Below are positions 3,286 through 56,515 of a DNA stretch of 58,829 bases, piece by piece. Source of the stretch: a virus; the IMG/VR virus record IMGVR_UViG_3300045988_093898, positions 1-58,829 of that record. One strand, 5' to 3'. The notes beneath the pieces were generated by a model. That model was not told the origin of the DNA and made no database searches. It worked only from the letters and a program-made list of their open reading frames with translations. The number at the start of each line of letters is the position of its first letter. Within the stretch, counting starts at the first letter, position 1. Position numbers and translations under genes: made by a program.

Positions 3286-3909
3286 ATGAGTAAAATAGAA
3301 GCAGAACTTGACGGTATAGAAACTGAATATGACCCGAATTATGGAAGTCGTGGCAGACGTGGGACATATTTGTATAAAATACCATGTGCTATATGTGGGA
3401 AAATAGTAAGAAGAGTTTGTTATACTAGGACAATTACATATTTATGTGATTATTGTAAAACAACGATAAGAAAGAAAAAAGAAATATCAAAAGAACTTTT
3501 GGAAGTGAAAACTCCGAAAGAAAAACAATTTGATAAGGCGGTAAACAAAATTAAAAAACAAGTTTTTGATTTTAGTTTGTACGAAAAAGCAATTAAAATT
3601 GCAGAAATAAGACAAGAATTATACGGCAGTATTCCAGAAGCGATGGTTGCAATCGAATTGCTGAGGTTGGGATACAGCATAATACCTCAGCAAAAGATAA
3701 AGAAATATAAAGTTGACTTTGCTATTCCAAAAGAAAAGATTATTATAGAAGTAGACGGCTCGTTGTATCATAAAGATGTATATAAAGGAGAAAGAGAAGC
3801 TATAATACAATTATCTTTAGGGCTTGACTGGAAAATCATTCATGTTCCAGCAGAAAAAATAGCAGAAAATATTACTAAACTGAAACAAGTCATAGAAGTT
3901 TTGAAATAA
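3286..3909 (+). CDS. zinc-ribbon + DUF559/Vsr-like (restriction-endonuclease fold) endonuclease domain protein
   Basis: N-terminal CxxC...CxxC. C-terminal KVDFAIPKEKIIIEVDGSLYHK ... IHVPAEKI pattern typical of DUF559. Confidence 0.5.
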   Translation: MSKIEAELDGIETEYDPNYGSRGRRGTYLYKIPCAICGKIVRRVCYTRTITYLCDYCKTTIRKKKEISKELLEVKTPKEKQFDKAVNKIKKQVFDFSLYEKAIKIAEIRQELYGSIPEAMVAIELLRLGYSIIPQQKIKKYKVDFAIPKEKIIIEVDGSLYHKDVYKGEREAIIQLSLGLDWKIIHVPAEKIAENITKLKQVIEVLK

Positions 3910-3976
3910 AATAAAATCTTTTCGGTGCGTATCACTTTTTAACAGGCGGTACGCATTTTTTGATGGAGAAAACAGA

Positions 3977-8024: not shown

Positions 8025-8507
8025 ATGGAATTCATAGATGCTTTAGAGTTGTTGAAACAGGGTAAAAAAATAAAATTACCTAGTTGGAGTGGCTACTGGG
8101 TAAGGGAAGATAATACAGTAAAAATGTATTGTAAAGATGGTAATGTATTGGATATAAGAGAAACAGAAGATGTATTTTATACATTATCTAATATTGCATC
8201 AGAAAATTGGAAAGTGGCAGAAGATGAAGAAATTCATTTAGATGTGCATACTTTTACTTTCGGAGAAGCAATCCGTAGATTAAAAACAGGACAGAAAGTT
8301 GCACGAAAAGGTTGGAATGGCAAGAAACAGTATATTCAGTTGGCAACAGGCATCTCTTATAAAACAGGAGATGATGAAATTGTAAATTGCGAACATGATG
8401 CGATAGGTAATAAAGCAATTGCTTTTGTCGGAACATCTGGTGTACAGATGGGCTGGCTTGCATCACAGGCTGATATGCTTGCAGAGGATTGGATTGTTGT
8501 AGAATAG
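8025..8507 (+). CDS. tandem DUF2829 (Tad2-like) domain protein
   Basis: Two repeats of the F..A...LK.G.K+....W motif: FIDALELLKQGKKIKLPSW and FGEAIRRLKTGQKVARKGWNGK. C-terminal WLASQADMLAEDWIVV is typical of DUF2829. Confidence 0.62.
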   Translation: MEFIDALELLKQGKKIKLPSWSGYWVREDNTVKMYCKDGNVLDIRETEDVFYTLSNIASENWKVAEDEEIHLDVHTFTFGEAIRRLKTGQKVARKGWNGKKQYIQLATGISYKTGDDEIVNCEHDAIGNKAIAFVGTSGVQMGWLASQADMLAEDWIVVE

Positions 8508-8523: not shown

Positions 8524-8916
8524 ATGGAATTGAACAAAGCAGAATATACGATTTTAGCACAAGTCAAAATCAGACTTAAACAATTTCATATGGAAACTGT
8601 CACAAATGAAGATGATACAACAAAGGATGTAGCCGTGTTTGATAACAAAGAAGATGATTTGCTCATTGAACAGCTTATTAAACAGGCTACAGAAGATGTT
8701 AAGAACAGGAGAAATTACCCCGACAGCTACACGGAAAAAATGATAACAGAGGACTTGAAACAGTTCGAGGGAGTTATCGTTAATCTTGTTGTGTATGACC
8801 ATTCACAGGCGGGCGAAGAATTTATGGCAAGTTTTGGCGAAAATGGTGTAAGTCGAACATGGAAAGACAGAGACAGCTTATTTGTCGGGGTATTTCCTTT
8901 TGTAAAAATGTTATAA
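8524..8916 (+). CDS. head-tail connector (gp6-like)
   Basis: 130 aa, positioned after the capsid genes. The LIEQLIKQATEDVKNRRN pattern is typical of gp6-like connectors. Confidence 0.55.
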   Translation: MELNKAEYTILAQVKIRLKQFHMETVTNEDDTTKDVAVFDNKEDDLLIEQLIKQATEDVKNRRNYPDSYTEKMITEDLKQFEGVIVNLVVYDHSQAGEEFMASFGENGVSRTWKDRDSLFVGVFPFVKML

Positions 8917-9027
8917 ACATTAAAAAGAAGATTGTGCGTACCATATACGTGAGGTCACGAAAATGGTGCAGGCGATACACTTTAAAGGGTGGTGGGCGGT
9001 GTATCAAAATTATACAGGAGATATAAA

Positions 9028-9333
9028 ATGCAAGATATTTTATTACAAACATATATAATAGCATTACCGATTTTTTTGGGCTATATTGTTTGGCTTCTAA
9101 AACAACAAAAAAATGATAAAGACGCAAATAGCAAAGGAACTATGTTGCTATTGCGTGTACAACTTATCGAATACCACGATAAGTATATGAAAATTGGTGA
9201 AATGCCCTCTTATGCGTATGACAATTTTGTTGAAATGTATAACGCATATCACGCACTTGGCGGTAATGGCATGGTAACCAAAATGTATAACGAAATACAA
9301 GAAATTCATTTAAAGAATGGAGGTAAAGACTAA
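9028..9333 (+). CDS. single-pass membrane protein (holin-associated?)
   Basis: N-terminal TM segment LLQTYIIALPIFLGYIVWLL. GGAG lies upstream of ATG 9028. Stop overlaps the holin start (TAATG). Confidence 0.5.
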   Translation: MQDILLQTYIIALPIFLGYIVWLLKQQKNDKDANSKGTMLLLRVQLIEYHDKYMKIGEMPSYAYDNFVEMYNAYHALGGNGMVTKMYNEIQEIHLKNGGKD

Positions 9334-41966: not shown

Positions 41967-43340
41967 ATGGAATGTGTTGCGTACATGAGAGTATCAACAG
42001 AAAAACAAGCAGAAGATGGAAACGGGCTGGAAAGCCAAAAAAGAGATATTGATAATTACTGCAATAAGAACGGTTATATAATCAGTGATTACTATATTGA
42101 CGATGGTTATACTGGTGCAAACATGGACAGACCACAGCTGCAACGACTTATCAGCGATTGTGTATCGAAAAGAGTGAAGTGTGTTGTTGCTTTTAAATTA
42201 GACAGGTTGTCACGAAGCATGGTTGATGGAATATATATCATCGAACGAGTGTTTCAAGCAAACAACATCTTGTTTAAATGTGTGCATGACAGTATAAGCT
42301 ACGACAGTCCGATGGAGCAAGCATATACTCAGATGATGGCAGTTTTTGCACAGCTTGATAAAAACACAATGATGTTGCGTATGCGTGGCGGTATGTTGGA
42401 AAGAGTAAAGCAAGGCTACTGGATGGGTGGCGGTAATACTCCTTATTGCTATAAGTATGATAAGGAAAAAGGAATTTTAGTACCTATACCCGAACGGAAA
42501 GAGCAGGCAAATCAAGCATTAGATTTGTTTATCGACGGCTATTCGGATGTTGCAATTAAAAAAATGCTTAATTTTACGCATGAGCATACTGTTAAAATGG
42601 TTTTAACAAGTCCAGTAAACATCGGCATGATACCATATAAGGGCAATTTATATAAAGGTTTGCATGAGCCTATTTTTGATAAAGATAGATTTCAGCTTGC
42701 ACAGGAAGCGAGGAAAAACAGAAGAAAAAAGAAAACAGTTAGCCTCAACAAAGAACCAAATTTATTGACAGGTTTATGTTATTGCGGTGTGTGTGGATGT
42801 AAAATGCGTTATCAAAAATGGGGAAGTGAATCTGATGCACCTAAAAAAATTTACTGTTGCTCACGAAACAAAGATTTATTTTATTTGCCGAATTACAATA
42901 GAGACTGCGATAATTCAATAGAATGGGCTACCGACATTGAAAAACAAGTCGAAGCTGAGATAATAAAAATATCTTTAAATTTGTCATCGCAAAAACCAAT
43001 CGCAAAGCAGAGTAAAATTGATATAATACAGTCGCAAATCAAAAAGGAAAAATATCGCCGCAAAAGGCTTTTTAATCTTTACGCAGATGGAAATGACGAT
43101 GTTTTGAATATAATAAAACAGTCAGACGATACTATCAGTAGTTTAAAAGAACAACTTGAAATTGAATTATTAAGTAAAGAAGCAAATAAAAAGAAAAGTA
43201 TTGCCTATGAGAACATCAAAAAAATTGCCGATGTTTGGGACAGCATCGACAAAAGAAATAAAAATATGATACTTAAAACTATAATTGACAAGATAATAAT
43301 TGTCAATGGAGATATTGAGATACAATTAAAGAATTTTTAG
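41967..43340 (+). CDS. large serine recombinase (integrase)
   Basis: N-terminal AYMRVSTEKQ catalytic motif. About 457 aa with a Cys-rich zinc-ribbon (CYCGVCGCKMRY...YCCSRN) and a coiled-coil C-terminus. Confidence 0.85.
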   Translation: MECVAYMRVSTEKQAEDGNGLESQKRDIDNYCNKNGYIISDYYIDDGYTGANMDRPQLQRLISDCVSKRVKCVVAFKLDRLSRSMVDGIYIIERVFQANNILFKCVHDSISYDSPMEQAYTQMMAVFAQLDKNTMMLRMRGGMLERVKQGYWMGGGNTPYCYKYDKEKGILVPIPERKEQANQALDLFIDGYSDVAIKKMLNFTHEHTVKMVLTSPVNIGMIPYKGNLYKGLHEPIFDKDRFQLAQEARKNRRKKKTVSLNKEPNLLTGLCYCGVCGCKMRYQKWGSESDAPKKIYCCSRNKDLFYLPNYNRDCDNSIEWATDIEKQVEAEIIKISLNLSSQKPIAKQSKIDIIQSQIKKEKYRRKRLFNLYADGNDDVLNIIKQSDDTISSLKEQLEIELLSKEANKKKSIAYENIKKIADVWDSIDKRNKNMILKTIIDKIIIVNGDIEIQLKNF

Positions 43341-50164: not shown

Positions 50165-50863
50165 TCAAGATAAAAAAACTGGCGTTTCGCCGTCATAAAG
50201 TTCAGCAAAAACTTTCGTTCCTTTGTCAAGATAGCGGCATCTTATTTTTTCAAAACGCCGAAAACCTTTTTTAGTGTATTCGTATTTTTTGTTTATCAAA
50301 TAAGCTATGCTCGCAATTTTGTTATCAATAAATTGTTCTGGAATATATGCGTTATTTCTTAAAAAACCTATTTTGTTTTTCTTTTCTAATTCTACGACAA
50401 CAATATCATCAACACGAATTAAATCTTCATATCTTCCAAGCGACAAAAAAGTTTTAGGATGTTTTAAAGCGGCGAAAACTTGTTGAAAATCTTCGTCTTG
50501 CGGCTGTATGTATATTTCTAAATTCAAGTCAGATAAAAAGTTGATTTCTTTTATATCTTGGACCCAGCCGACACACTTTCCGTTATTTTCGACGATAATG
50601 TGCCATCTTTTTCTTTGTTCGTCTGTAATTTTTCCGAAATTATAACCACCCTCCCAAATTTTTTGGGTTTCTTGATTAAAAAAACCTTTTCCGGAAACAA
50701 AAAAATTTAAAGGATGGTAACGCTCCCAGCCACAAGCGTGATGAACCATCCCGGAAATAGTAGAAAATGGTGGAAGCGGTAGAATTTCCGGAAATAGTGA
50801 AAAACCATATGGGAACCTTGCAGTTCCCATATACCCCACCATTTTTATAACTTTTAACGCCAT
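50165..50863 (-). CDS. Cas5-like (RAMP) protein, solitary
   Basis: 232 aa. N-terminal GYMGTARFPYGFSLFPEILPLPPFSTISGMVHHACGW and later FLSLGRYEDLIRV resemble Cas5 signature segments. Strong RBS AAGGAGG. Confidence 0.35.
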   Translation of the reverse strand: MALKVIKMVGYMGTARFPYGFSLFPEILPLPPFSTISGMVHHACGWERYHPLNFFVSGKGFFNQETQKIWEGGYNFGKITDEQRKRWHIIVENNGKCVGWVQDIKEINFLSDLNLEIYIQPQDEDFQQVFAALKHPKTFLSLGRYEDLIRVDDIVVVELEKKNKIGFLRNNAYIPEQFIDNKIASIAYLINKKYEYTKKGFRRFEKIRCRYLDKGTKVFAELYDGETPVFLS

Positions 50864-54443: not shown

Positions 54444-54776
54444 ATGACTGGCAATGAGTATCAAAAGTTTGCAAACAGAACTTGCAGTATTACAGAAAAC
54501 AAAACGGATATGCTGCATCATGCAGTATTCGGTTTAACATCTGAGGCAGGAGAAGTAGCCGGGATGTTACAAAAGGAATATCAGGGGCACGAATTTGATA
54601 TAGACCATTTCAAGAAAGAATTAGGAGATTGTACATGGATGATTGCGGAAGCGTGTACTGCGGTCGGAATAACTCTTGACGATGTATTTAACACGAATAT
54701 CAAGAAATTAAAGAAACGCTATCCTGATGGTTTTACAACAGAAAATTCACTGCATAGGGCAGAAAATGATATATAA
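54444..54776 (+). CDS. MazG-like nucleotide pyrophosphohydrolase
   Basis: NEYQKFANRT...GLTSEAGEVAGMLQK...ELGDCTWMIAEACTAVGITLDDVFNTNIKKLKKRYPDGF. Confidence 0.75.
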   Translation: MTGNEYQKFANRTCSITENKTDMLHHAVFGLTSEAGEVAGMLQKEYQGHEFDIDHFKKELGDCTWMIAEACTAVGITLDDVFNTNIKKLKKRYPDGFTTENSLHRAENDI

Positions 54777-54932
54777 GAGTGAGGTGAAGAGATATGGCAA
54801 TTAGAGCACCAACAATTTAAAGTGAAACATTTTTTGAAACTTGTTTAACAATTATTTTTTTTCATATCTTTGTATCTTCTGAGAAATATTACATATCACA
54901 CACCGCAAGGCGATAACAGTCTTGCGGAATAA

Positions 54933-55004
54933 TGGGGCATCGCCAAGAGGTTAAGGCATAGCACTTTGACTGCTACATCATGGGTTCAAATCCCATTGCA
55001 CCAG
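54933..55004 (+). tRNA. tRNA-Gln (anticodon TTG)
   Basis: Manual cloverleaf. Acceptor tggggca/tgcacca (one G-A mismatch). Anticodon arm tagca-cttTTGac-tgcta. T arm atggg-ttcaaat-cccat. No encoded CCA. Confidence 0.8.
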
Positions 55005-55260
55005 TTTGGCAAGATGCCATCTTTGTTTTTCTTCTTGCAAAATTGCGGAGAAAAACTCCTTTCCCACACTAGCGGAATGCTGATTAAAGAGCCATCGCAC
55101 GGCTCGGTGTGGTTGTTCGGGTGTCTATCCCACGATGCCCGAACTTACATACTTTTTCCGTACTGGACTAATGTAGTTCCATTACAACTTTCACACCCAC
55201 CCATAACACACAGGTGCTTGCATACCATCTTAAAAGCCTATACAGAGGTGTATGCAACTT

Positions 55261-55332
55261 TGGCATATAGCTCAGTGGTAGAGCAACAGATTGTTAATCT
55301 GTGGGTCGTAGGTTCGATACCTACTATGCCAG
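55261..55332 (+). tRNA. tRNA-Asn (anticodon GTT)
   Basis: Manual cloverleaf. Acceptor tggcata/tatgcca. D arm gctc-agtggta-gagc. Anticodon arm acaga-ttGTTaa-tctgt. T arm gtagg-ttcgata-cctac. Confidence 0.88.
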
Positions 55333-55525
55333 TTATGTCAACACTTGTGCAGAAACCAATGTCGGCAATGGAAGAACAGAAACTAGCTGTTGACATTATC
55401 AATTTGCTCTCGACAAACGTCATTAGGGACGGTTCGAGAACGGTATAACAAAGTCCGTATGAATTATACAAATATAGCAACAAAAATAATTCAATCCGTA
55501 AGTAGATGCTATGAACTTACGGTTT

Positions 55526-55643
55526 CGGATAGTAGCTTAATGGCAGAGCTTCCTCGGAGCCGAAAGTGTAAGAATAAGGATGGTGCACACGAATTATTCT
55601 GAGAAAAAGCAGAGTGGCAGAGGTTCGATTCCTCTCTATCCGG
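55526..55643 (+). ncRNA. oversized tRNA-like element A (118 nt)
   Basis: Perfect 7-bp acceptor cggatag/ctatccg. D-arm-like gctt-aatggca-gagc. T arm agagg-ttcgatt-cctct. There are 69 nt where about 22 are expected, and I could not fold an anticodon arm. Internal 8-nt direct repeat TGGCAGAG (55541, 55615). Confidence 0.35.
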
Positions 55644-55743
55644 TTTATTTGGTCAGTGATATGCTGTTGGCTTAACTGGTGGTCTATGTCATGGCTGAAT
55701 GCAATACACGCCCACGCAAAAATACTAGTTACGACGCGGGTGG

Positions 55744-55854
55744 TAGATAGTGACGGAATAGGTAAACGGAATTGCCGTAGAGAATTGGGTGCAATCGACA
55801 ACTTAGCTACCCAGGTTGCGCACTCCTGTGTGGTGCAAATCCACACCTATCTAC
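55744..55854 (+). ncRNA. tRNA-like element B (about 110 nt)
   Basis: Acceptor-like gtagata/tatctac. T-arm-like gtgtgg-tgcaaat-ccacac. No canonical D or anticodon arms found by hand. Confidence 0.25.
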
Positions 55855-55922
55855 TTATCCTCAAAACTATCGAGGATAGCTGATAAACAGGCTTTTTAAA
55901 GTTCTTCCTGACAATATGAAGA

Positions 55923-55968
55923 AGAGTAGACAGATGGTGTTTTATCCGGTTCGATTCCGGACTACTCT
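55923..55968 (+). ncRNA. tRNA minihelix-like element C (46 nt)
   Basis: Acceptor agagtag/ctactct and T arm tccgg-ttcgatt-ccgga, joined by only 15 nt. Confidence 0.3.
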
Positions 55969-55996
55969 TTAATAATTTAAGTGAGAGGTAAGAAAG

Positions 55997-56515
55997 ATGG
56001 ATAATTTGGAACAACACAAAACACTTTTACAACAGATACATGATACATATGTCAAGAAAAATCATGATTATGGCGATAGCTTTAGTCGTTCATTTAAGAA
56101 ATATGGACTTGTAGCGGCTATGGTTCGCATGGAAGATAAATGGAACAGACTTGATAATATGGCATTAGGAGCAGAACAGAAAGTTGCTGACGAAACTATA
56201 AGAGATACGCTGCTAGACCTTGCTGGATATTGCGTTATGACAACGATGGAACTGGACAGAGAGAAAGATAACGCAAATCAAAAGGCATTTGAAGAACAGG
56301 TTCGGGATGAATATGTCGAAGTTTTTGGAGAAGATAACGAGAACGAAAATGAAGAAACAGATGCTTCTAATAAAACATCAGTGGAAAAGAGCTCTATTGA
56401 TGTAGGCAAGGTAATGGCTTTACATAATGCCAAATGGTCGCAAGCAAAGATTGCTGATGAAATGGGGTGTTCACAGGGGCGGATTTCGCAGATTATCAAA
56501 GAATACAAACAGTGA
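55997..56515 (+). CDS. DUF1599 / MazG-superfamily-like protein with C-terminal HTH
   Basis: HDTYVKKNHDYGDSF...MVRMEDKWNRL...LLDLAGYCVM. C-terminal WSQAKIADEMGCSQGRISQIIKEY. Confidence 0.5.
   Translation: MDNLEQHKTLLQQIHDTYVKKNHDYGDSFSRSFKKYGLVAAMVRMEDKWNRLDNMALGAEQKVADETIRDTLLDLAGYCVMTTMELDREKDNANQKAFEEQVRDEYVEVFGEDNENENEETDASNKTSVEKSSIDVGKVMALHNAKWSQAKIADEMGCSQGRISQIIKEYKQ

Follow-up and report, generated by a model that had tools for sequence, protein, structure and literature searches.

The window analysed here is the whole 58,829-nucleotide stretch of the IMG/VR virus record IMGVR_UViG_3300045988_093898, a siphovirus-like phage genome in which nearly all long open reading frames (ORFs) lie on the + strand. 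Between a gene for a MazG-domain protein (54444–54776) and a gene for a DUF1599 protein with a C-terminal helix-turn-helix (HTH) (55997–56515) lies an island of 1.2 kb in which no credible ORF was found. On its + strand the island carries two decoding tRNAs, for Gln and Asn, and at least four tRNA-shaped elements that lack an anticodon, with structured spacers between them. Those described below are element A (55526–55643), element B (55744–55854), element C (55923–55968) and a mini element at 55064–55112. In A, B and C the acceptor and T arms, and in A and B also the D arm, are intact and evolutionarily maintained, and the anticodon arm is missing. Element B belongs to a family built on a tRNA-Leu-derived frame with an exchangeable, cassette-like centre. 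No Rfam match to a group I intron, transfer-messenger RNA (tmRNA), ROOL, GOLLD or drum RNA was obtained in the window, the island being scanned at E<=10, and BLAST of the island against cultured phages gave matches limited to the two true tRNAs.

An earlier note on this DNA had described A, B and C as aberrant elements with perfect 7-bp acceptor stems, and both a structural scanner and a direct check of the sequence bear this out; its list of three was one short, having missed the element at 55064–55112. The scanner looks for T arms of 5 or 6 bp, with a T-loop-like heptamer, that run straight into the 3′ strand of a 7-bp acceptor stem. Applied to both strands of the entire 58.8-kb window, it matched only tRNA-Asn, A, B and the T arm of C, its chance rate being about one match per 2.8 Mb of block-shuffled phage DNA. 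Rfam, folding, the scanner and comparison with sibling phages thus uphold the view that the elements are tRNA-like, non-canonical and not due to chance, and that the spacers are structured. The ARAGORN and Rfam checks that had been proposed were run, confirming the two tRNAs and placing A above the gathering score of RF00005, though only with 61 nt skipped in place of the anticodon arm; in its default mode ARAGORN reported none of A, B and C. A T arm is present in all three elements, as claimed, although that of B cannot be called canonical, its loop being UGCAAAU and its stem 6 bp long.

Element B is composed of the acceptor stem UAGAUAG/CUAUCUA, the dinucleotide UG, a D arm, a centre of 58 nt, the T stem GUGUGG/CCACAC with the loop UGCAAAU, and the discriminator C; its 8-bp pairing GTAGATAG/CTATCTAC was verified in the sequence. 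The anticodon arm is indeed absent, as noted earlier, yet the statement that no D arm could be recognised was wrong, since a D arm of tRNA-Leu type (GACGGAAUAGGUAAACG) is present and reads UG-ACG-GAAUAGGUAAA-CGG. Its pair 10:26 is A.G in the window and G-C in 71 of 86 family frames. The family numbers at least 170 distinct sequences, drawn from phages in IMG/VR, genomes of Bacillota (Gram-positive bacteria) and cultured phages. Its frame is made up of a 7-bp acceptor stem, U8 and G9, a Leu-type D arm (3-bp stem, loop GAAUAGGUARA), the centre, (C)AUG, a T stem of 6 bp that ends in GG/CC, the UGCAAAU loop, the 3′ strand of the acceptor and the discriminator. The family D arm, GCG-GAAUAGGUAGA-CGC, is as in real phage tRNA-Leu(UAA). 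Acceptor and T stems form a stack of 13 bp (7+6), position 55 of the T loop is a G, and the elbow nucleotides U8, A14, A15, G18, G19 and C56 are conserved.

The comparison with related phages for covariation, also suggested earlier, was carried out and showed extensive covariation in the B frame. Over 86 distinct frames 98.3% of the cells are paired, against 34–45% when the partner is slid by 1–3 columns, and covarying pairs were found at 7/7 positions of the acceptor stem, 2/3 of the D stem and 4/6 of the T stem, including the unusual sixth. This set had been pre-filtered for mostly paired stems; the D stem lay outside the filter, and unfiltered pattern matches behave alike. A covariance model, R1, was built from 35 members, with the phage group, frame and payload class of the window excluded. 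In the window it found B as its sole match (62.5 bits, E 2e-13); elsewhere it scored the elements of phages phi3T and LP-101 at 58.5 and 63.9 bits, against 26–41 bits for true tRNA-Leu genes. Neither B nor C matched any Rfam family, even at E<=10, and over 40 loci of family members no Rfam family covers B, one member (L130; L-numbers label the loci collected for comparison, siblings and family members) barely reaching the tRNA threshold. At the discriminator position the family has A (54%), U (28%), C (13%) or G (4%); because this nucleotide is not conserved, charging by leucyl-tRNA synthetase (LeuRS) is unlikely as a shared function. A related form was seen in L175 (3734–3870), which is tRNA-Leu-like with about 28 nt inserted in the D loop and a long centre, scores 23.2 bits with R1 and is followed by a C-type minihelix at about 3915–3964.

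The centre behaves quite differently from the frame. Among siblings the 5′ 26 nt and the 3′ 30 nt of B are constant and the centre is swapped for at least five unrelated sequences. In the family as a whole the centres, bounded by the D stem on one side and the (C)AUG before the T stem on the other, range from 41 to 196 nt, and clustering by BLAST divided them into 126 classes among the at least 170 distinct members, 107 of these classes being singletons. Eight frames hold more than one payload class, the window's own frame (TAGATAG/GTGTGG) holding five, and conversely the same payload is found in different frames (L005 and L011; L003 and L128). That one frame can carry several payloads, and that one payload can sit in more than one frame, indicates that centres have been exchanged by recombination within the conserved D and T arms. 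In an RNAalifold analysis of the window's payload class (nine sequences in four frames), the acceptor and T stems and an internal stem, P1, are supported, with compensatory changes in 11 of 22 pairs; P1 reads UUGCCG/CGACAA in element B and UUGYSG/CSRCAA in the class, and covaries. B's membership of a large family with an exchangeable centre, together with the mosaic make-up of the island described below, is read from sequence comparison and goes beyond what the earlier note had proposed.

The distribution of the family was examined with a pattern formed of its D-loop and T-loop cores (AGGTARAC, 50–80 nt, GGTKCAAATCC), in which no pairing was demanded. In IMG/VR nearly all among the matches listed have the complete frame, and in GTDB, searched with one genome per species, 57 of the first 120 matches listed are frame-complete. 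The organisms named among the GTDB matches listed are all Bacillota save one metagenome-assembled genome of Syntrophales, the Bacillota carriers among them including Bacillus, Paenibacillus, Lactobacillaceae, Leuconostoc, Weissella, Enterococcus, Faecalibacterium, Oscillospiraceae and Clostridia. Cultured phages that carry the element include Bacillus phi3T, Listeria LP-101, Leuconostoc Ln-9, Weissella PWc, Lactobacillus Sha1, Paenibacillus Pd_22F and others; in their GenBank records it is unannotated or lies under a hypothetical ORF. The family is apparently undescribed, and no description of it was found in Rfam 15, in GenBank annotations, or in open-access papers and bioRxiv searched by concept and by frame sequences.

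Among 152 members, the nearest upstream genes on the same strand include late regulators of the ArpU family (21) and the RinA family (14), and the downstream genes include those for HNH endonuclease (18), TerS (24) and TerL (13). RinA-type activators act upstream of terS, in the leader of the late operon (PMC3152322, PMC3753634). The family thus sits in the late-operon leader, which is also the site of the tRNA genes of these phages. No partner protein co-occurs consistently among the neighbours, and the regulators and packaging genes reflect genome position and not a dedicated partner. In LP-101 (L465, 2282–2737) an rliG/rli62 RNA, the B-family element (2495–2625; about 42785–42915 of NC_024387) and an mcrA RNA motif follow one another in that order, between an annotated transcriptional regulator gene and the HNH/terminase genes. 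Other phage RNAs adjoin family members on the same strand: ROOL in L162 (667–1248), 14 nt upstream of the member at 1262–1384, and in L137 (2663–3235), about 460 nt away, and drum in L157 (230–335) and L121 (3449–3554), about 115 nt downstream of the members. In phi3T (L466) the element (2500–2635; 50193–50325 of KY030782) lies just downstream of yonN (HU-like) and partly under the hypothetical ORF phi3T_57, and a DUF3800-VIII RNA motif is located at 3863–3928, 1.2 kb past it.

Element A has the frame of a class-I tRNA without its anticodon arm. It is made up of a 7-bp acceptor stem, the D arm GCUU-AAUGGCA-GAGC, a T arm (CAGAG-GUUCGAUUC...) with a canonical loop, and a centre of 61–69 nt. With permissive filters it aligns end-to-end to RF00005 at 40.7 bits, above the gathering score of 29, with a local insert of 61 nt where the model has 15 nt of anticodon arm. 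The 8-nt direct repeat TGGCAGAG that had been noticed within it is real, being part of a longer repeat of 19 nt and 79% identity (55534–55552 and 55608–55626). All phages that carry element A have it with 100% identity: 0 of 118 columns vary, against 22 of 192 in the upstream spacer of the same six siblings. A pattern of class-I D and T arms set 48–78 nt apart yielded 54 distinct A-type frames in IMG/VR, A included, with perfect or near-perfect acceptor stems. No homologue of A with a related centre was found beyond the identical copies, the other frames having unrelated centres; L257, L305, L334 and L255 share the 5′ half of A, and their centres are unrelated to its own. The centres in these four loci have an internal hairpin, GGAG-UGCAAAU-CUCC, whose loop is the T-loop heptamer of the B family. 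In L334 the A-type element (8227–8339) lies about 430 nt upstream of a phage-encoded tmRNA gene (8772–9075; tag ADRKLAMVA*).

Element C is, as the earlier note had it, a 46-nt minihelix of acceptor and T arm. It has the 7-bp acceptor stem AGAGUAG/CUACUCU, a 5-bp hairpin and the T arm UCCGG-UUCGAUU-CCGGA, its pairing AAGAGTAG/CTACTCTT was verified in the sequence, and its 3′ end lies 28 nt ahead of the ATG of the next gene. In siblings the changes in its T stem are wobble-compatible, and the small hairpin AGACA/UGUUU becomes AGGC/GCUU in two lineages. Minihelices of the same layout, 43–59 nt long, are also found in unrelated phages. The mini element at 55064–55112, in a segment with a fold z-score of -4.6 (55005–55150), is closed by an outer stem of 7 bp (CCACACU/GGUGUGG) around two hairpins, a small one (AGC-GGAAU-GCU) and, directly against the 3′ strand of the stem, one resembling a T arm (GAGCC-AUCGCAC-GGCUC); in siblings compensatory changes are seen in the outer stem and the first hairpin, and other hairpins of the spacers keep their helices when the apices are replaced. 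A further type of 107 nt, present in L006 (3744–3850), L008 (3835–3941) and L011 (3835–3941), replaces or precedes C; it has the acceptor TAGTTGC/GCAACTA, the T arm GTGGG-TTCGACT-CCCAC and no D arm.

For the sibling comparison, 111 IMG/VR loci were collected with the two flanking proteins as anchors, about 15 of them from close siblings. Their islands contain the same modules in different combinations: Gln, Asn or Trp, followed by optional Tyr, Ser, Leu, A, B, the 107-nt element and C. The whole island is a mosaic of modules common to the sibling phages.

The two decoding tRNAs had been predicted earlier and both are recovered by ARAGORN and Rfam, tRNA-Gln(UUG) at 54933–55004 (57.7 bits) and tRNA-Asn(GUU) at 55260–55333 (73.5 bits). 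The clean fold claimed for tRNA-Gln does not hold, as its acceptor stem has a G4.A68 mismatch: among the 8 copies compared, the window has an A (55000) where 7/7 sibling copies have a C. In the sibling L002 the anticodon of tRNA-Gln is CUG instead of UUG. A 5′ hairpin abuts or nearly abuts each of the six tRNA and tRNA-like elements, at 54903–54927 (CCGCAAG/CTTGCGG, 5 nt upstream of tRNA-Gln), 55025–55056, 55218–55257 (TTGCATAC/GTATGCAA, abutting tRNA-Asn, with apical pairs compensated in L008 and L012), 55493–55525 (11-nt arms, abutting A), 55709–55742 (of GCCCA.../...UGGGC type, abutting B, and kept with changes in L006) and 55903–55924. If RNase P cleaved at the elements, these leader hairpins would be left as 3′-terminal hairpins of the spacer RNAs, and the spacers might therefore be stable as well.

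The hairpin at 55025–55056, the second after tRNA-Gln, has exchanged its apex and retained its helix in the siblings L007 and L016. It is preceded by a hairpin followed by a U-run (55007–55019), a weak terminator-like site. Of the two spacer hairpins singled out in the earlier note, both exist at corrected positions: the one assigned to 55134–55163 is an 11-bp hairpin at 55115–55144, with wobble-compatible changes in siblings, and the one assigned to 55230–55258 is the inner part of the hairpin at 55218–55257. The 9-bp long-range pairing ATGTCAACA/TGTTGACAT is exact, and forms part of a spacer module at 55335–55396. A second box, AATGTCGGCA (55358–55367), resembles ATGTCAACA (55335–55343), and either can pair with TGTTGACAT (55388–55396). 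The 5′ part of this module sits after tRNA-Ser in siblings and hence travels as a module of its own. Further fold-predicted hairpins are a long one at 55646–55701 and, just 3′ of B, UAUCCUC...GAGGAUA at 55856–55878, in a spacer that is 92–100% conserved in siblings. The array is followed by the ribosome-binding site (RBS) GAGAGG and the start codon of the DUF1599/HTH gene (55982–55999, + strand); residues ~139–171 of the encoded protein form a C-terminal segment like sigma-70 region 4 or an HTH. At the start of the island, just past the MazG stop codon, there is a mini-ORF of eight codons (MAIRAPTI*, 54803–54829) with the RBS GAGGTG.

What could such an array be for? We give slightly better than even chances to the explanation that the elements of the island are transcribed together and then released by RNase P and RNase Z as stable, tRNA-framed small RNAs that take no part in decoding. 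The array would be transcribed as a single precursor, and the host enzymes of tRNA maturation would recognise the acceptor, T-arm and elbow frames. RNase P would cut on the 5′ side and RNase Z after the discriminator, CCA would be added next, and each element would be set free as a stable small RNA; the cut at C would in addition define the 5′ end of the downstream mRNA. By being recognised and processed in this way the frames would act as natural tRNA scaffolds, that is, as handles for processing and stability. The lack of an anticodon, G55 and the 13-bp stack would keep the RNAs out of translation, while the centres, which differ between near-identical phages, would carry an accessory function; that this function is the binding of host or phage factors in phage–host conflict is a guess. 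The 3′ ends are consistent with such processing. An encoded CCA is absent from all six elements, and the discriminator is directly followed by U in 6/6 and by UU in 5/6 of them; in the B family the share of members with a U there is 56% or more. A U in this position is favoured by RNase Z. B. subtilis processes precursors that lack CCA with RNase P and with RNase Z, the latter cleaving on the 3′ side of the discriminator (PMC1874595). A wider proposal, which we put forward only tentatively and regard as rather doubtful, is that phages of Bacillota use a tRNA-Leu-derived scaffold, processed and barred from translation, to present structured RNA cargos that are swapped by recombination in the D and T arms.

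Several observations weigh against this explanation of the island. On the + strand, a consensus scan of the island and the sequence ahead of it detected nothing like a sigma-70 promoter. The single-sequence folds of A, B and C are no more stable than those of shuffled sequences (z -1.0 to -1.6), and complementarity between the remainder of the phage genome and the spacers or the centres of A, B and C is, at its longest, no greater than with shuffles, which offers no sign of antisense action. Constrained folds of 155 family members revealed no shared architecture of the centre (1–3 branches), and 126 payload classes without a common architecture are no harder to explain by an insert that is tolerated and drifts neutrally than by functional cargo. 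That the Leu-type elbow is so strictly conserved may indicate a specific partner and not processing of a generic kind. Finally, sibling islands contain tRNA fragments (L010, 3030–3080) and the copy of C in L018 has a 4-nt deletion in its acceptor strand, so some decay does occur.

The conservation of the elbow leads to the rival that we take most seriously, even if we think it rather unlikely: the elements may be tRNA mimics or decoys whose function resides in the frame, which would present an elbow and an acceptor end like those of tRNA-Leu and so bind and titrate some host factor that binds tRNA, for instance a tRNA-targeting defence nuclease or toxin, a maturation enzyme or LeuRS. Such RNAs would be neither used nor harmed in translation, and their centre need only be something other than an anticodon arm, a role for which the extreme diversity of the centres is well suited. 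The D- and T-loop nucleotides are nearly invariant across phages of Bacilli and Clostridia while the stems covary freely, and even the departures of the family from tRNA, G55 and the 6-bp T stem, are themselves conserved. Defences that target tRNAs, and phage tRNAs that counter them, are documented (PMC10264068, PMC13056530). Nonetheless, the tRNases of these two reports cut the anticodon arm or loop, precisely what the elements lack; the variable discriminator (C in the window's B) counts against a common charging by LeuRS, and no consistent partner protein accompanies the family. The compensatory changes that uphold structure within payload classes would also be unexpected for pure filler. 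The elements might instead act in cis as punctuation, being mainly RNase P and RNase Z cleavage sites that set mRNA ends, with the excised RNAs as by-products. This is most plausible for C, which ends so close to the next start codon and whose place is taken by the 107-nt tRNA-like element in siblings that lack it, and for family members between a late activator and packaging genes, in the late-operon leader; in LP-101, too, the element stands between the rli62/rliG RNA and the mcrA motif. On the whole we find it improbable, given that a cleavage site needs no Leu-type D arm, no 13-bp stack and no structured centre of 41–196 nt, that A, B and C in a row exceed what punctuation requires, and that the position is simply the usual tRNA gene site of these phages.

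The earlier note had also raised the possibility of decayed tRNA genes, that is, tRNA remnants disrupted by insertions or deletions and no longer under selection. The tRNA fragments of L010 and the damaged C of L018 are what such decay would look like, the centre of A has no significant structure, and all copies of A are identical. Plain decay is nevertheless very unlikely as an account of the island, and for B it is largely refuted by the covariation of the frame over 86 sequences and by the R1 match. The invariance of A contrasts with the variable spacer beside it, compensatory changes maintain the stems of C and of the mini element, the acceptor stems of A, B and C are perfect, and the same architectures recur in unrelated phages. 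Even less can be said for the other suggestion, that of intron-containing, permuted or tmRNA-like genes maturing into translation-competent RNAs, which we consider close to excluded. It is true that A scores as a tRNA save for one central insert, and that the intron mode of ARAGORN reports a tRNA for it; yet the calls conflict, being Ala(tgc) with a 27-nt intron in one case and Cys(aca) with a 354-nt intron in the other, and a mismatched anticodon stem is needed. No halves of an anticodon stem flank an insert in A or B, and the 5-bp/7-nt anticodon arm is absent from A, B and C. The intron, low-threshold, tmRNA and mitochondrial modes of ARAGORN gave nothing for B or C, its tmRNA mode (also at a lowered threshold) and Rfam found no tmRNA, and there is neither a group I intron match nor a tag reading frame. 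Inserts of 41–196 nt are also mostly too short for group I introns.

If the island is indeed an array of processed, non-decoding RNAs, its closest classical precedent is T4 rnaC (species 1), the comparison being one of gene arrangement and of T-arm/acceptor architecture only. Like the island elements, rnaC and rnaD (species 2) lie beside phage tRNA genes on the same strand. The rnaC product is about 140 nt long, non-decoding and annotated only as a "small, stable RNA", and it ends with a canonical T arm (CCGGG-UUCGAAU-CCCGG) and, after it, a strand like the 3′ half of an acceptor stem. It differs in showing no similarity to the elements by sequence or model, R1 giving no match in the T4 tRNA region, in having a 5′ extension outside its tRNA-like part, in lacking the Leu-type D arm, the UGCAAAU loop and the exchangeable centre, and in its Gram-negative host. 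Among tRNAs proper, the likeness of B is to tRNA-Leu (class II, RF00005): its U8 G9 and D arm GCGGAAUAGGUAGACGC are nearly identical to those of a phage tRNA-Leu(UAA) (L090, 7622–7705), and A14, A15, G18, G19 and C56 are retained in the B family, as is a U where tRNA has U48. In contrast to tRNA-Leu, B has no anticodon arm, a T stem of 6 instead of 5 bp, G55 instead of U and a discriminator not fixed as A.

The logic of the frame is that of the tRNA scaffolds engineered to express recombinant RNA in E. coli, in which the anticodon region of a tRNA is replaced by an unrelated structured RNA and tRNA enzymes process and stabilise the product. The tRNA-miRNA transcripts of murine gammaherpesvirus 68 contain tRNA-like units of the same scaffold logic. 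Those systems are artificial or eukaryotic-viral, whereas the B family is natural and bacterial-viral, with a class II frame, a 13-bp stack and a processing that is so far presumed. The engineered tRNA scaffold has been used for RNA expression in vivo (PMC3753655). ROOL, GOLLD and drum are likewise unexplained RNAs of phages and prophages found near tRNAs (PMC5737381, PMC12286853), and ROOL and drum adjoin B-family members, although their structures and sizes are different; one explanation put forward for the proximity in the case of ROOL and GOLLD is that they may be transcribed together with the tRNAs (PMC5737381). YrlA and other Y RNA-like RNAs are also non-coding and untranslated and mimic the D and T arms of tRNA (PMC4201824). 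A YrlA match in the island (55283–55396), which does no more than overlap the T arm of tRNA-Asn, was rejected: at 23.7 bits it falls short of the gathering score of 69. In YrlA the ends of the RNA form the Ro-binding stem and the acceptor-like stem is closed, whereas in the island elements the ends form the acceptor stem. Taken with these precedents, the elements can be classed with the tRNA-like small RNAs known from the tRNA clusters of phages, and it is a realistic possibility that they represent a new class of natural RNA scaffold.

The purpose of phage tRNA genes is debated, and the RNAs that adjoin them, such as T4 species 1 and 2, ROOL, GOLLD and drum, have been left unexplained for years to decades. 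In the present phage, part of what looks like a tRNA array consists of tRNA-shaped RNAs that are unable to decode. The B family is easily recognised by a precise structural signature around a hypervariable, cassette-like centre, and it occurs in tractable phages, which makes the question directly testable in the laboratory. For annotators, this is a reason to stop leaving the genes of the family blank or under hypothetical ORFs. Should the scaffold explanation prove true, phages would possess the natural equivalent of a device that RNA engineering arrived at on its own, and the system would be, in phi3T and Listeria LP-101 among others, the RNA counterpart of the cassettes of accessory and anti-defence protein genes.

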